From Clostridia bacterium (GTDB lineage: Bacteria > Bacillota > Clostridia > Christensenellales > UBA1242): a stretch of 42,806 nt of DNA. Made by a program: the position numbers and the translations under genes. The stretch spans positions 1 through 42,806 of the forward strand of contig JBKSNA010000049.1 of NCBI GenBank assembly GCA_046882085.1. Reading direction: 5' to 3'. Below are positions 1,418 through 6,205 of this stretch, piece by piece; within the stretch, counting starts at the first letter, position 1, and each line of letters opens with the position of its first letter. The notes beneath the pieces are model-generated. The model saw only the letters and a program-made list of their open reading frames with translations. It was not told the DNA's origin and made no database searches.

Positions 1418-1801
1418 TTAAAATTTTATTTCTTCATCTGTCGAATAATATTTTTCGAGCAAATCAGCATAATCTACGAATTGTCCGCTCAACGTATCTT
1501 GCCATGCTTGAGTAAGCGTTGCATTTCTCACATACTCGTCTGATTTGGAATCATCAGTACTTACCAAGCAAGAAAATGTGCTAAGTAAGAAACTAGCATT
1601 CTTATGCTTATTCGCACGAGACACTAACGAAAATCTACCACATACAGTAGGACCGTCTTTCAACTTACACCTAATGTACTCGTCTACATTCTCAGTAGCA
1701 TTACCTTTTTTCTTAAGATATACTCTAATATGTTTATTGAAGAAATCGTCAAATACTTCATCAGGTAATGTTCTAATATCTATACTTTCCATATCTATCA
1801 T
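1418..1801 (-). CDS. orphan hypothetical protein (~127 aa)
   Basis: Open ORF with its own TTGACA(1839-1834)-17-TATAAT(1816-1811). The ATG at 1810 abuts the -10 box, so 1801 or 1792 is the likelier start. Confidence 0.7.
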   Translation of the reverse strand: MIDMESIDIRTLPDEVFDDFFNKHIRVYLKKKGNATENVDEYIRCKLKDGPTVCGRFSLVSRANKHKNASFLLSTFSCLVSTDDSKSDEYVRNATLTQAWQDTLSGQFVDYADLLEKYYSTDEEIKF

Positions 1802-1840
1802 CTCCACCATATTATACCATATTATTTTTATTTTGTCAAA

Positions 1841-3823
1841 TTAGTCTGTGATTAGTTGTGAAATATGTTTTCTAAAGAAGTCTTCTTTCTCTTTGATTTC
1901 TGTAATCTTGCCTTCTCTATTATTGTCTAAGATCTTATAAAAATCTTCAAAGATATACTCCCAACTGAACGCCTTATCTTTGTCTAGACCGATCATATCA
2001 GCAACATATTCACTACCTGTAGGCACAATAGGATGAAGTAAAATATCTGCAGTAATAATCATCTGGAATGTATCAATAGTTAGCTGAGCTAACTTCTCAG
2101 CAGTATCTGCTTCGTTCACGTATTTAGCCCAATGCTTATTCATATTACGAATGAATACATCGATAGTGTTATACACTTGGTGAAGTTTCTTATCATGCAT
2201 AAGTATTTCATACTTTAATATTGTAGATTTACATAATTCCATAATATCAGTAGATACTGTACCTACAGGAATAACCCCATCAAAATTCTTCTGAGTCGAA
2301 TAGAATATCGTACGCAAGATTCTATTGTATACATTAGTGAGTAGATTACCCTCCAACACCATAGAATCAAGTTCATCTTCTTTAGCATTAGGATCGAAAG
2401 CTTTAGGTGATAGGCTAACATTATTATTAGCAACATTCATCGCCAAGAAGTGCATTCTAAATTGTTCCTTAGTATAATGGTCTAAGAAATCCATAGCCAT
2501 TGGAGGCTTAATATTACCTGAACTACTAGCCTTGCTATTCATATATAAGATTGATTTGATAGGATTGATATTAGTAATCCTTAATTCTCCTTCTGCTGGA
2601 TCAATTGTAGGATTCTCTCCTTGCAATGACAAGAACATAGCCTGCTGTGCTGGTCCATAGAAATACAAGTTATCCTCCCCTAAGAACTGATGAACTTCTG
2701 CATCTTTGCTACACCAATATTTCTTCCAATCATTAATATCTTTGCCAGACTTCTCTAGATATGTCTTAGTAAAACTTATAGGTGCCCATAGACTCTCTGG
2801 CCAACAATAGAATGTTTTATCCTTCACTCCAAGGTACTCTGGACAAGGTACGCCCCACTCAATATCTCCTGTGAGTCTAAATGGAGTGAGCGTCTTACCT
2901 GTACGATAGCGAATAGAATTATTAGCAAATATTTCACAAGCCTTCTCACGACTAGTCAAATCTTTGAATATTAGCGTAACACTTGGAGCTTTTGGATTCT
3001 TATCCTCTATCTCGTATTCTGGCACATCTAGAGTCTTCACTGTGTCTAGGTATTCACGCTTTAAATACACTTCTGGCAATTTGAAAAACTCGTTAATTTC
3101 TTTAATCATAAATGAAGGAGTGTCTTTCTTTCTAGCGATTGAATCTGTCCATTCTCTTAGAATATCTACGCATTTATCTAGGTCAAAATAAATATTATCT
3201 CTCTCTACTAATATTGGTGTTTCGCCACTTAATTCAGATATCGGATTGATTAGATCTTGTGGAAGATACTGATGACCTAAGCCACATTCGTCGGCATAGC
3301 CCTTTTCGCTCTGACAACCTTCAATAGGGCACTTACCTACTACTTGACGGCCATTTAGAAGACAATTGCACTTCTTATCGAAGAATTGCCATGAAGAATA
3401 CTTAGTAATCATATTTGCACGACTCAAACCATCGATAAACTCTTCACTAGTCTTATGATGAATCTCTCCACTTCTACCTAATGCAGATGCTCCAAAATGA
3501 TCGAATACAATATCAAAAGCATTGAATATTTCTTCTTGCATCTTATGATTGTGCTCTAGGTAGTCTTCAATAGTTGGGAATCTAGTATCTCCAGACTCAA
3601 TTAATTTTCGATAACTCTCTACCGCTGTAGAGCCATAACAGTCGGTACCTGACACAAAGATAACATTGTCCTTGCCAATGCGATCCTTCAAAAATCTCGC
3701 CACAATATCAGCTCTAAGTGCCATACCTACGTGACCATGATGTAATAACTTATTTCCATAAGGCATACCTGCAGTAACTACTGCACGCTTAGGGAATTCA
3801 GGTCTTCTAATCTCAAAATCCAT
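1841..3823 (-). CDS. metG: methionine--tRNA ligase, divergent class I type
   Basis: VTAGMPYGN..HHGH (HIGH), SGTDCYGS, Zn-knuckle region GKCP..GC...ADEC..GH, DIEWGVP, FLGEDN..FY, KASSS (KMSKS equivalent). Confidence 0.85.
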   Translation of the reverse strand: MDFEIRRPEFPKRAVVTAGMPYGNKLLHHGHVGMALRADIVARFLKDRIGKDNVIFVSGTDCYGSTAVESYRKLIESGDTRFPTIEDYLEHNHKMQEEIFNAFDIVFDHFGASALGRSGEIHHKTSEEFIDGLSRANMITKYSSWQFFDKKCNCLLNGRQVVGKCPIEGCQSEKGYADECGLGHQYLPQDLINPISELSGETPILVERDNIYFDLDKCVDILREWTDSIARKKDTPSFMIKEINEFFKLPEVYLKREYLDTVKTLDVPEYEIEDKNPKAPSVTLIFKDLTSREKACEIFANNSIRYRTGKTLTPFRLTGDIEWGVPCPEYLGVKDKTFYCWPESLWAPISFTKTYLEKSGKDINDWKKYWCSKDAEVHQFLGEDNLYFYGPAQQAMFLSLQGENPTIDPAEGELRITNINPIKSILYMNSKASSSGNIKPPMAMDFLDHYTKEQFRMHFLAMNVANNNVSLSPKAFDPNAKEDELDSMVLEGNLLTNVYNRILRTIFYSTQKNFDGVIPVGTVSTDIMELCKSTILKYEILMHDKKLHQVYNTIDVFIRNMNKHWAKYVNEADTAEKLAQLTIDTFQMIITADILLHPIVPTGSEYVADMIGLDKDKAFSWEYIFEDFYKILDNNREGKITEIKEKEDFFRKHISQLITD

Positions 3824-3834
3824 ATACTCTCCTT

Positions 3835-3869
3835 AAAATAAAAGCACCCCAATTTTTGTTGGAGTGCCT
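3835..3869 (-). terminator. terminator hairpin in metG 5' leader (attenuator)
   Basis: GCACTCCAA-caaaaa-TTGGGGTGC then TTTTATTTT, between the promoter and the metG RBS. Confidence 0.75.
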
Positions 3870-3903
3870 AAAATCAATTCTTCACAAAAAAAGGTCTATA
3901 ACA

Positions 3904-3954
3904 TTATATAGATAACATGATATATTGTTGTTGCTGTTGAAGTCCTCTTTTCAT
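3904..3954 (-). CDS. putative leaderless leader peptide MKRGLQQQQQYIMLSI
   Basis: ATG lies 7 nt after the -10 box; CAA CAG CAA CAA CAA at 3939-3925; stop codon inside a hairpin followed by CC and U7. Confidence 0.6.
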   Translation of the reverse strand: MKRGLQQQQQYIMLSI

Positions 3955-3961
3955 TATTATA

Positions 3962-3990
3962 ATGATATCATAGGAAATTTCAATTGTCAA
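3962..3990 (-). promoter_or_regulatory. sigma-A promoter for leader peptide/metG
   Basis: TTGACA-17nt-TATCAT with extended TGn. Confidence 0.8.
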
Positions 3991-4020
3991 CGATTTTTGA
4001 AAATTAATATTTTTATTTAG

Positions 4021-4053
4021 AAAAAGAAAAACACTCGGTTGAGTGTTTTCTTT
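4021..4053 (-). terminator. intrinsic terminator after thyX
   Basis: AAAACACTC-ggtt-GAGTGTTTT inverted repeat with A/T tails. Confidence 0.8.
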
Positions 4054-5235
4054 CTATATTAATCTATCACCCTTAATCCCGTCAGTGAATCCGCATGGTT
4101 TGACACAGGTATAATCAGGGAATGTACATCTGGATCCTTTAGAATACTGCTCTAGCTCTTCCGCTCTTGGATGATTTTTCTTCTTCAATTCTGATATATA
4201 CATTTTGAGCAATAGATTAGTCTGATCGTTTATCTCGAGTTGGGCACAAGCACACATTCTCTCTTTCATCTTTAGAATAAACGCATCAAAATTACCAAAT
4301 TCATTGATGTTCACTAGTAATCCTTGAGGGAATTTAGATGCTTGAGATTCGCAATCCCTAATCCACTCAGATGCCAACGCATGACTCCTAACAAGTAATG
4401 GCGGAACAAAGAACTCTGGATCTTCGAGTAATGTCATATTGTATCTTATAGTACGATGTCTATGTGCTTGAGCGAGCTGTGCTAGACTACCCTTGTAGCT
4501 CACTGAATAAACATCTCCAAAGTACTGCTCAGGTTTGATTAGTCTACCTATAAGAGACAATTTTCTATTCTTATTCTCTACTCCTAACTCAATATCTCTA
4601 TCTAAATATTCTCCGCAAGTTTCTTCTAGTTGAGTGCAAAATTCTCTCATTGCGGGCTTTAATTGTGTCATGAATTCATCGCTCTCTTCAGAATTGATTT
4701 CATTAATTAACATTTCATATATGTAGTTTAGTTGTCTATAACTAACACTATACACCATAGTAGTAGGAGTGAATGCAGATATCAAATATCTAGCATTCTC
4801 TTGTGCTAATTTACCAATTTTCTCATCAGTGAAGAAATTTGGACATTTTTCTTTATACTCTTCTGTAATGAGTGTAGCGAATGTTTCTAGCCACTTGTCA
4901 TATAGTTTCTGTTCGCCCTCTTCTAACACCATCTTAGTGTATCTAGCAGACTTCTCACTGGTGGTATACATACCTTCGTTATTTAATACCATAGCTAGTG
5001 CCTTAGGAATATTCTCTAGAGACAAATTAATAGTTGGGTGATCAAAAACGCTGTGGTGTTGATTAGATTTGGTAAAATTCGCTCTACCTAGAGTCCTCTT
5101 CAATGGTTCGTTCAATAATGCGTCGAAATTATCCGGCATATAACACACACCACCAGCATGCCCGCTTAGACGCTCTAATTCTTCTTTGGTCGCCAAATAT
5201 CCTTCTTTGGTTGAACCTACTACTGATATTTTCAT
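4054..5235 (-). CDS. thyX: FAD-dependent thymidylate synthase, tandem two-domain type
   Basis: HHSVFDH, SEKSARY and AQENARYL in the N half; QAHRHRT and AQLEI in the C half; 393 aa. Confidence 0.8.
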   Translation of the reverse strand: MKISVVGSTKEGYLATKEELERLSGHAGGVCYMPDNFDALLNEPLKRTLGRANFTKSNQHHSVFDHPTINLSLENIPKALAMVLNNEGMYTTSEKSARYTKMVLEEGEQKLYDKWLETFATLITEEYKEKCPNFFTDEKIGKLAQENARYLISAFTPTTMVYSVSYRQLNYIYEMLINEINSEESDEFMTQLKPAMREFCTQLEETCGEYLDRDIELGVENKNRKLSLIGRLIKPEQYFGDVYSVSYKGSLAQLAQAHRHRTIRYNMTLLEDPEFFVPPLLVRSHALASEWIRDCESQASKFPQGLLVNINEFGNFDAFILKMKERMCACAQLEINDQTNLLLKMYISELKKKNHPRAEELEQYSKGSRCTFPDYTCVKPCGFTDGIKGDRLI

Positions 5236-5325
5236 AAAACCCTCCTAAAATTTTTGCTATTATAATTAAGAAATCAAAATTTGTCAACAAATTTAATACA
5301 CTATCACGTATAGAATTTTGACATC

Positions 5326-6154: not shown

Positions 6155-6205
6155 ATTTTCTCCTTGATGACTACATTATATCAGAATTCTTAAATTTGTC
6201 AATAC

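Follow-up and report, generated by a model that had tools for sequence, protein, structure and literature searches.

A predicted glutamine-codon attenuator in front of a MetRS-derived enzyme that most likely supplies Gln-tRNA(Gln) in Clostridia

Why would a gene that resembles a methionyl-tRNA synthetase (MetRS) be preceded by a short open reading frame (ORF) carrying a run of glutamine codons? The question is raised by a stretch of 42,806 nucleotides (nt) from Clostridia bacterium (GTDB lineage Bacteria; Bacillota; Clostridia; Christensenellales; UBA1242), namely positions 1 to 42,806 of contig JBKSNA010000049.1 in GenBank assembly GCA_046882085.1. This stretch, referred to herein as the window, is an entire contig from a metagenome bin of 791 kb and approximately 90% completeness, coded G000. 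The MetRS-like gene is called P throughout, G019 is the closest relative of G000, and the leader, with all its features on the minus strand, occupies the interval between P (1841-3823) and a thyX-like gene (4054-5235). The answer favored here, with fairly good confidence, is that 3835-3990 (minus strand) acts as a ribosome-mediated transcription attenuator of P, and that P is a MetRS-derived enzyme that most likely forms Gln-tRNA(Gln); the transcription start site, the translation of the short ORF, the switch, and the substrate of P are all inferred from sequence. The elements of the locus are as follows.

3985..3990, minus strand: -35 hexamer TTGACA, followed by a 17-nt spacer
3962..3970, minus strand: extended -10 element TGnTATCAT (TG at 3970-3969, TATCAT at 3967-3962), ending 7 nt before the ATG
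3904..3954, minus strand: putative leader-peptide ORF MKRGLQQQQQYIMLSI with its stop codon, 16 codons, ATG at 3954 and stop at 3906-3904
3925..3939, minus strand: five Gln codons, CAA CAG CAA CAA CAA, inside the short ORF, the proposed sensing codons
3944..3954, minus strand: region 1, AUGAAAAGAGG, predicted partner of CCUUUUUUUGU (3884-3894) in an 11-bp helix of the minimum-free-energy and centroid folds
3895..3912, minus strand: post-ORF hairpin UCUAUA-UAAUGU-UAUAGA (-4.1 kcal/mol) with the stop codon in its loop, followed by CC and U7 (3892-3886)
3880..3894, minus strand: region 2, the proposed switching strand CCUUUUUUUGUGAAG, which aligns with the conserved AUUUUUGUUGCUUGUGAA of relatives
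3835..3869, minus strand: intrinsic terminator, stem-loop 3869-3842 with 11 pairs (5 G-C) and -15.0 kcal/mol, U tract 3843-3835
3829..3834, minus strand: Shine-Dalgarno (SD) sequence AAGGAG of P, with the main ATG at 3823
1841..3823, minus strand: regulated gene P, 660 amino acids (aa), a paralogue in the MetRS family (Pfam PF09334, E 3.4e-59)

The promoter, the 16-codon ORF, the weak hairpin with its U7 tract, and the strong terminator are all present in the sequence as claimed in a preliminary description of this DNA, and the lack of a T-box that it noted is borne out by an Rfam scan of 3500-4300 at E<=10, which returned 12 weak matches, all far under their gathering scores and none of them a T-box. 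The features of the RF00230 model, i.e., Stem I, the specifier loop, and the T-box sequence, are missing from the leader over the same interval. A glutamine riboswitch (RF01739) was likewise not found in the leader; its sole match, of 13.8 bits against a gathering score of 35, lies outside it on the opposite strand (4225-4287). Six T-box leaders were detected elsewhere in G000 with the RF00230 model, all below the Rfam gathering score of 93, and the organism thus does use T-boxes, though not before P. As the -10 element ends 7 nt before the ATG, the RNA is expected to start at or next to the AUG, which would render the ORF leaderless. Promoter-like matches in the region are no more common than in shuffled sequences (21 found vs 20.8, standard deviation 4.2), and a consensus match by itself therefore proves nothing. 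No promoter belonging to P itself lies behind the terminator. The sequence of the terminator 5' arm and loop, CUCCAACAAAAA, is similar to that of the codon-run region. The U7 hairpin had been described as a first of two terminators; the hairpin is indeed there, but it is better read as a post-ORF hairpin joined to the switching strand (region 2).

Whether the leader exceeds what chance would produce can be judged from the genome itself and from G019. The window contains the only run of five or more CAR (CAA/CAG) triplets in the whole 791-kb genome, both strands considered, while runs of at least four number six, and the leader folds with a z-score of -2.36 relative to shuffles, 3 of 200 of which fold as well. 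Between G000 and G019, identity amounts to 94.5% for the 165-nt leader and to 84.3% for the DNA of P, falling to 64% at the third positions of its codons. The short ORF is the same in both genomes at 51 of 51 nt, and the unchanged state of its silent sites implies that a constraint at the RNA level exists. Differences are located in the hairpin loop, the linker, the base of the terminator, and the U tract; the promoter, the hairpin stems, region 2, and the terminator stem are kept almost unchanged. By this comparison, the leader of G000 is under selection. The sensing of Met, or of fMet-dependent initiation, which had been entertained earlier, finds no backing: DNA contigs from three public runs, belonging to two studies, have ATT (Ile) at the codon of the one internal Met, Met13 (strain variants), and no other leader peptide contains an internal Met.

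The most informative evidence comes from upstream regions of P in relatives, of which 125 were available: 25 informative ones in the genus (26 were read; the 27th locus, G011, is a gene fragment lacking its 5' end) and 100 further regions in the wider family, where 3 are cut short by contig ends and 97 entered the residue-run count. A short ORF with a Gln run precedes P in 19 of the 125 regions (4/25 in the genus and 15/100 in the family), spread over about ten genus codes, such that homologous short ORFs are found in 18 genomes besides G000, each with three to five Gln codons. Within the genus, the 25 regions comprise 4 with a Gln-run ORF, hairpin, and terminator, 5 with a T-box, 2 situated after an asnS-like gene, 1 abutting a gene, and 13 with a promoter only; the Gln-run leaders are those of G000 and G019, that of G044, with MKFSVQQQQQILSLLN behind an SD, and that of G063, with MKNLQVQQQQ. 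In the family, the short ORF lies 120-200 nt before P, and examples of its peptides are MKNVKIQQQQR, MSKNLQQQQY, MINFAQQQQQ, MKTNFQVQQQL, and MVNICKRFQQQI. These peptides share only M(K) and the Q run, with flanking codons that differ while the frame is kept, and in all 15 regions having a CAR run the run is in frame within the short ORF. Among residue runs in short ORFs, only that of Q sets the two groups apart, with 15/97 P regions vs 0/39 control regions, a single run each of M and N, and none of D; no Gln-run short ORF was found before glnS in 39 usable upstream regions of the same family.

The plan of the ORF is uniform across 18 distinct leaders, with an M(K) start, a Gln run after 4-8 codons, and a stop 0-6 codons later. 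A TAnnnT -10 box ends exactly 6 nt before the start codon, with no SD, in 12/18 leaders (6-7 nt in 13/18; the window has 7 nt), an SD takes the place of this fixed spacing in 3/18, and a TTGACA-like -35 hexamer is located 29-30 nt before the short-ORF start in 12/18. A fixed distance from the -10 box to the AUG, or an SD in its stead, argues for translation of the short ORF in these predicted leaders. Hence, upstream ORF position, Gln codon run, hairpin, and terminator recur in 19 of 125 regions from roughly ten genera, and the relatives support the ribosome-dependent attenuator, the Gln sensing, and the leaderless ORF that had been proposed from the window alone. By hand count, 8 of the leader genomes have GatB and 11 do not, from which no link between the leader and GatB is apparent. 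Metagenomes of the JGI yielded 11 further loci, none useful as a close relative given that all are at <=35% identity. As a separate observation, at three loci, L083 (G047), L085 (G079), and L082 (G050), the promoter immediately upstream of P is preceded by another one with its very short transcript and a terminator; such a layout may be the relic of an attenuator that a new promoter has bypassed.

A possible switch can be deduced from the pairings available in the related leaders. There, a stable hairpin of variable sequence stands right behind the stop codon, region 2 is conserved as AUUUUUGUUGCUUGUGAA, and the terminator 5' arm and loop contain (C)AAGCAACA. Because the latter imitates the Gln run, region 2 can pair either with the Gln codons (region 1) or with the terminator 5' arm (region 3); the former pairing extends the post-ORF hairpin into one long stem, and the latter duplex is at least 2 standard deviations better than shuffles in 12 of 17 leaders with a called terminator (the calls were made by script; three, G228, G333, and G175, were judged wrong, and G201 has no call). 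When seven similar leaders were folded jointly by RNAalifold over the part behind the Gln run, the post-ORF hairpin and a 9-bp antiterminator, UGUUGCUUG/CAAGCAACA, were obtained and kept in 7/7. A consensus fold of all 18 leaders from a MAFFT alignment predicted no pairs, the leaders being too divergent to align without structure. The predicted antiterminator is strong in the leaders of G044 and G344. In folds of the G044 leader with the ribosome masked, the probability of sequestration of the terminator 5' arm is 0.17 for a free leader or a ribosome at the stop codon and 0.68 for a ribosome stalled at Gln. As predicted, the scheme of the relatives is the classic attenuator one of 1:2, 2:3, and 3:4 pairings. 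In the window, the region 1:2 duplex (AUGAAAAGAGG/CCUUUUUUUGU) reaches -10.0 kcal/mol vs -7.3 (standard deviation 2.1) for shuffles, and the first 11 nt of the RNA would still lie under a ribosome stalled at the first Gln codons. A different pairing, of codons 2-6 with the terminator 3' arm (-11.4 to -12.1 kcal/mol), was dropped, as it entails the wrong regulatory logic and is only 1.7 standard deviations over shuffles.

The proposed mechanism would thus begin with transcription at or next to the AUG of the leaderless 16-codon ORF. When Gln-tRNA(Gln) is plentiful, the ribosome would pass the five Gln codons and leave at the stop codon, whereupon the U/G-rich strand that follows the small hairpin would be taken up by pairing with the start of the leader, the strong terminator would form, and the RNA would end before P. 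When Gln-tRNA(Gln) is scarce, the ribosome would stall on the Gln codons and cover region 1, leaving region 2 free for the terminator 5' arm and loop, so that the terminator would fail and P would be transcribed. The hairpin and the U-rich strand might additionally serve as a pause site at which the ribosome can catch up with the polymerase. As P most likely makes Gln-tRNA(Gln), the loop would be homeostatic.

What, then, is P? It matches MetRS models only, and all of its sequence matches in the PDB are MetRS, yet it scores below the cut-offs of the NCBIfam MetRS equivalogs (NF001100, 221.2 bits vs 587; TIGR00398, 160.8 vs 336.35). An AlphaFold2 model (mean predicted local distance difference test score, pLDDT, 84.3; predicted template-modeling score, pTM, 0.87) contains the MetRS fold, including the helical anticodon-binding domain, and among the Foldseek matches listed from the PDB all are MetRS, superposed over the whole length with target template-modeling scores of 0.73-0.86 at 13-21% identity. 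The predicted structure is thereby a confirmation of the fold and cannot show which amino acid is bound. Residues of the methionine pocket (A12 L13 P14 Y15 D52 A256 P257 Y260 F/H300-301) are named in the accessible part of PMC10535265, and the pocket of P was mapped through motif alignment of 25 paralogues, not by structure. HxGH, the P-Y of the pocket, and the amino-group-binding Asp are retained in P. Throughout the 25 paralogues, KMSKS has become KASSS and TDEHG has become TDCYG, Tyr stands in for the pocket His, AQQ replaces the (I/Y)WP that comes next, and the helix after the pocket Trp reads PESLWAPISF. P is accordingly described, as far as the alignment permits, as a divergent MetRS-fold paralogue with a rebuilt amino-acid pocket. 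The possibility, mentioned in the preliminary description, that the enzyme is not a plain MetRS is strengthened by the scores below the equivalog cut-offs, the changed pocket motifs, and a distribution complementary to that of GlnRS.

A canonical MetRS stands beside P in G000, on another contig, and in five further P genomes according to the Pfam model, as well as in many others by a strict protein search. GlnRS (TIGR00440) has no match in G000 at E<=1e-60. Databases name P either "class I tRNA ligase family protein" or "methionine--tRNA ligase". It is proposed that P most likely works like GlnRS without being a member of the GlnRS family. Some further features of these proteins were observed in passing. 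Relative to solved MetRS structures, P contains an insertion of ~70 residues (residues 245-315, DNA ~2879-3091) that lies between the zinc-knuckle region and the second Rossmann half and ends in the invariant block YRTGKTLTPFRL; confidence in the model is low over a long stretch only in the zinc-knuckle region itself (residues 158-192). The canonical MetRS of the genus exists in two forms, one of ~667 aa with 73-100% identity to that of G000 and one of ~525 aa with 46-50%, and G013 possesses a third MetRS-family gene, an open frame of 601 aa (Pfam E 4e-132).

The phyletic pattern provides an indirect indication of the substrate. Among 64 genomes of the genus, P is found in 27, GlnRS in 33, both in none, neither in 4, and GatB in 16; GatB occurs in two of the 4 genomes without P and GlnRS, and completeness is 90% and 81% for the remaining two. 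Hence 21 P genomes of the genus lack GatB, i.e., they are without either known route to Gln-tRNA. In 401 sampled genomes of the family, P occurs in 139, GlnRS in 210, and GatB in 199; P and GlnRS coincide in 2 genomes vs 72.8 expected (Fisher 3e-59, kinship ignored), and one of the two is a bin of 76% completeness that gave two GatB matches, the other a genome whose P has only 41% identity. Genomes with P alone number 67, those with GatB alone 47, and those lacking all three 7. On a quick maximum-likelihood tree of LigA from 61 of the 64 genus genomes (three with fragmentary LigA were omitted), the P and GlnRS states are interleaved: parsimony requires 11 changes for P and 12 for GlnRS, of which well-supported branches force at least 5 and at least 6, respectively. 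No amidase/GatA-family gene was found in five good P-only genomes (91-98% complete, 3-20 contigs), and the two of these examined for it have a single GluRS-type gene each. Nearly the same tRNA-Gln(UUG) occurs in P genomes, in GlnRS genomes, and in those having GatB only; in G000 it is located at C38:10908-10982. In the 29 of 30 loci where it was read, acceptor and anticodon arms are the same except for a changed 1:72 pair in G002, and full-length matches are 95-100% identical.

The simplest reading of this pattern is that P most likely supplies Gln-tRNA(Gln), for which the Gln-codon leader, as reconstructed above, is independent support. A role like that of GluRS2, i.e., the attachment of Glu to tRNA-Gln, would be harmful in genomes without an amidotransferase. 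Apart from the main group, there is a deeper P-like branch at 39-44% identity to the P of the window, represented by 15 genomes (G237, G189, G319, G278, G304, G116, G129, G224, G348, G254, G187, G253, G309, G181, and G247), in which GatB co-occurs in 13/15 and the Gln leader in 0/15; its members may not have the function proposed for the main group.

Despite this agreement, a number of points weigh against the interpretation. The first promoter is overlapped by another promoter-like site (TTGAAA-16-TATAAT, 3983-3956), from which the RNA would begin within the ORF. Across the relatives, 106/125 upstream regions of P have no Gln leader, and the glnS genes of the family do not share it (0/39). 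In the window, region 2 pairs with the terminator loop and 5' arm at only -4.2 to -4.8 kcal/mol, no better than shuffles; with the A-rich loop it forms only ~7 A-U/G-C pairs, and the GUUGCUU core of the relatives is missing. With a stalled ribosome masked, sequestration of the window's 5' arm increases only from 0.23-0.24 to 0.37-0.38, and at equilibrium the terminator is still completely formed. The masked folds suggested earlier as a check predict a switch in G044, but the window's own leader changes little; its own sequence points weakly to a switch, which is the least secure step of the reading. As for the enzyme, P has lost the second Lys of KMSKS (KASSS in 25/25 paralogues) and keeps the N..R and W residues with which MetRS binds the anticodon, albeit with a 6-residue deletion before the W, and no change in tRNA-Gln that tracks P vs GlnRS was found in the 29/30 loci. 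The genomes are all metagenome bins, the phyletic statistics ignore relatedness, and the tree is a quick one from a single gene. Lastly, five congeners (L013, L014, L077, L078, and L081) have a T-box before P with an Asp (GAC) specifier.

These five T-boxes score 78-84 bits (Rfam gathering 93, E ~1e-17), and each has the specifier GAC followed by A and the bulge UGGC; thrS, pheS, and valS leaders from these genomes served to calibrate how specifiers are read. The GAC specifier and the UGGC bulge point to tRNA-Asp as the predicted ligand. A bacterial aspS directly follows P in 4/5 of these genomes, its place being taken by two AspRS/AsnRS-type genes in the fifth; the gap between P and aspS is ~100 nt, and in the gap that was read there is neither a T-box nor a strong terminator. 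The five congeners probably have a T-box-P-aspS operon, and if so, the Asp T-box says little about the substrate of P, which leaves it a loose end. The notion that P is a novel AspRS or AsnRS, suggested by the GAC specifier, was abandoned, as P lies directly upstream of aspS and the same genomes have AspRS/AsnRS-type genes. A related observation concerns G000, where gatB is directly upstream of aspS (C46:2208-5351), as in other GatB-bearing congeners, and where no AsnRS homologue was found by tblastn; Asn-tRNA is probably made there by the indirect route, and GatCAB would accordingly be needed at least for Asn.

Other explanations of the locus must be considered beside the attenuator. An unlikely one, though the most serious, is that the leader of the window is a decayed or simplified member of the family's attenuators, with a terminator that acts as a fixed, leaky brake and an ORF that no longer switches. 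The lack of the GUUGCUU core in region 2, a region 2-terminator pairing that does not surpass shuffles, and masked folds that barely change are what such decay would leave behind. Yet the leader elements are nearly unchanged between G000 and G019 while third codon positions of P are only 64% identical, and conservation of this strength argues that the leader still works; P, moreover, has no other promoter between the terminator and the gene. It is quite improbable that the CAA-rich stretch acts as RNA only, whether as the strand of a helix or as a site for a protein, tRNA, or ligand, with the ORF left untranslated. That the Gln run is conserved also as nucleotides (UUCAACAACA) and pairs with region 2, and that G000 and G019 do not differ at silent sites of the ORF, would be in keeping with it; the in-frame start 4-8 codons before the run and stop 0-6 codons after it in 15/15 regions, the -10 box or SD at a fixed distance from the start, and the free variation of codons before the run with the frame kept all speak for translation, and no match to any Rfam family, T-box, or glutamine riboswitch and, by eye, no conserved UGGN element was found.

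It is very improbable that P is a genuine additional MetRS, such as a stress form or one resistant to an inhibitor, with a leader that senses Met/fMet initiation or general starvation and a complementarity to GlnRS that is a by-product of lineage. The fold, all sequence matches, the retained N..R and W anticodon residues, and the database labels would each agree with a second MetRS, but every P genome tested already has a canonical one, the pocket changes of P are conserved, Met13 is Ile in strain variants and internal Met is absent from the other leader peptides, an overlap of 2 genomes vs 72.8 expected and at least five independent switches are not readily accounted for by lineage, and 67 genomes would be left without a known Gln-tRNA route. 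Barely credible, finally, is an independent small gene, encoding a small protein or an RNA, that merely happens to be in front of P: the unit does include a promoter and a terminator, which would delimit an RNA of ~115 nt, but P has no promoter behind the terminator, the unit is found only before P orthologues, and the peptide is not conserved except for the Q run. The reading of 3835-3990 as a Gln-codon attenuator of P is therefore retained as the probable one.

Around the leader, the window contains ordinary housekeeping genes in typical Bacillota order (rplT, infC, rplS, trmD, rimM, rpsP, ffh, ftsY, and smc). The thyX-like gene (4054-5235, minus strand) encodes a protein of 393 aa, about twice the usual length, that matches Pfam at 58 bits and TIGR02170 at 46 bits vs a cut-off of 87.9. 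In G000 the gene separates rplS from the leader; G019 lacks it at this position, and there rplS with its terminator directly precedes the same leader. Perfect sigma-70 consensus promoters (12/12; TTGACA, 16-17 nt, TATAAT) are found before several genes of the window (1811-1839, 5259-5287, and 6175-6202, minus strand). One of these belongs to an ORF of 130 aa directly downstream of P (1418-1810, minus strand), which has no Pfam or NCBIfam match; as listed, this ORF opens at the -10 box, and its real start is probably an ATG ~18 nt further in, behind GGAG. A phage origin, suspected from the consensus promoters, ThyX, and the spare synthetase, was rejected, as a phage collection gave no match and the window contains ordinary bacterial housekeeping genes.

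Taken together, the balance of evidence moderately favors P as a MetRS-derived glutaminyl-tRNA synthetase, which would constitute a third route to Gln-tRNA(Gln) and the sole route in at least 67 of 401 genomes, with about one in seven of the P genes autoregulated by a leaderless Gln-codon attenuator, the first for glutamine. A literature search, supplements not covered, returned no Gln-codon attenuator and no MetRS-type enzyme for glutamine, and synthetases go unmentioned in the accessible part of PMC12306168. Within this gut family, with genomes of ~1 Mb, many species seemingly lack both textbook routes to Gln-tRNA(Gln), and all of these carry P. The enzyme is the larger surprise, the leader the smaller one: if the assignment is true, P would add a synthetase lineage to those known, something as rare as the case of class I LysRS, and would show how nature re-specified a methionine pocket for glutamine and shifted anticodon recognition from CAU to UUG. 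Thousands of database entries now called "methionine--tRNA ligase" would then need a new label (a search at E<=1e-30 gave 5411 proteins, not all of them necessarily orthologues). The attenuator, for its part, would widen leader-peptide control to glutamine, to leaderless short ORFs, and to Clostridia-like lineages in which T-boxes dominate.

Several known systems put these proposals in context. The accepted routes to Gln-tRNA(Gln), as given in the accessible part of a 2014 survey, are GlnRS, GluRS2 with GatCAB, or GluRS with GatCAB (PMC3927822). The product inferred for P is the same as that of GlnRS (glnS, TIGR00440) and of GluRS + GatCAB, and P replaces GlnRS in the phyletic pattern; unlike GlnRS, P belongs to the MetRS family by sequence and fold, and its relation to GlnRS goes no further than membership in class I. 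Class I LysRS and similar cases exemplify synthetases that were recruited to a non-ancestral amino acid and that show a patchy, mutually exclusive distribution. P would resemble class I LysRS in that one synthetase lineage takes over an amino acid served elsewhere by a different enzyme, although the family and the amino acid are others.

With regard to the leader, T-boxes (RF00230) also raise synthetase expression in Bacillota when charged tRNA is short, and the P orthologues of five congeners carry one; the leader described herein would instead sense via translation and not through binding of uncharged tRNA. The attenuators of the trp, his, leu, thr, and ilv operons are described in the accessible part of PMC1183508. 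Like them, the leader of P is predicted to form 1:2, 2:3, and 3:4 pairings, with a stalled ribosome choosing between antiterminator and terminator; those are biosynthetic operons with SD-led ORFs, whereas here a tRNA-charging enzyme would be controlled and the stop codon comes 0-6 codons after the run. In Escherichia coli, the pheST operon, which encodes a synthetase, is governed by an attenuator with a Phe-rich leader peptide (pheM). By analogy, pheST is the closest known attenuator: in both, a synthetase gene would be controlled by a short ORF rich in cognate codons, alternative hairpins, an intrinsic terminator, and a homeostatic logic. In the case of P, the codons are those for Gln, the ORF is mostly leaderless, the 5' arm of the terminator imitates the codon run, the host is a Clostridia member with a reduced genome, and the regulated enzyme comes from outside the expected family.

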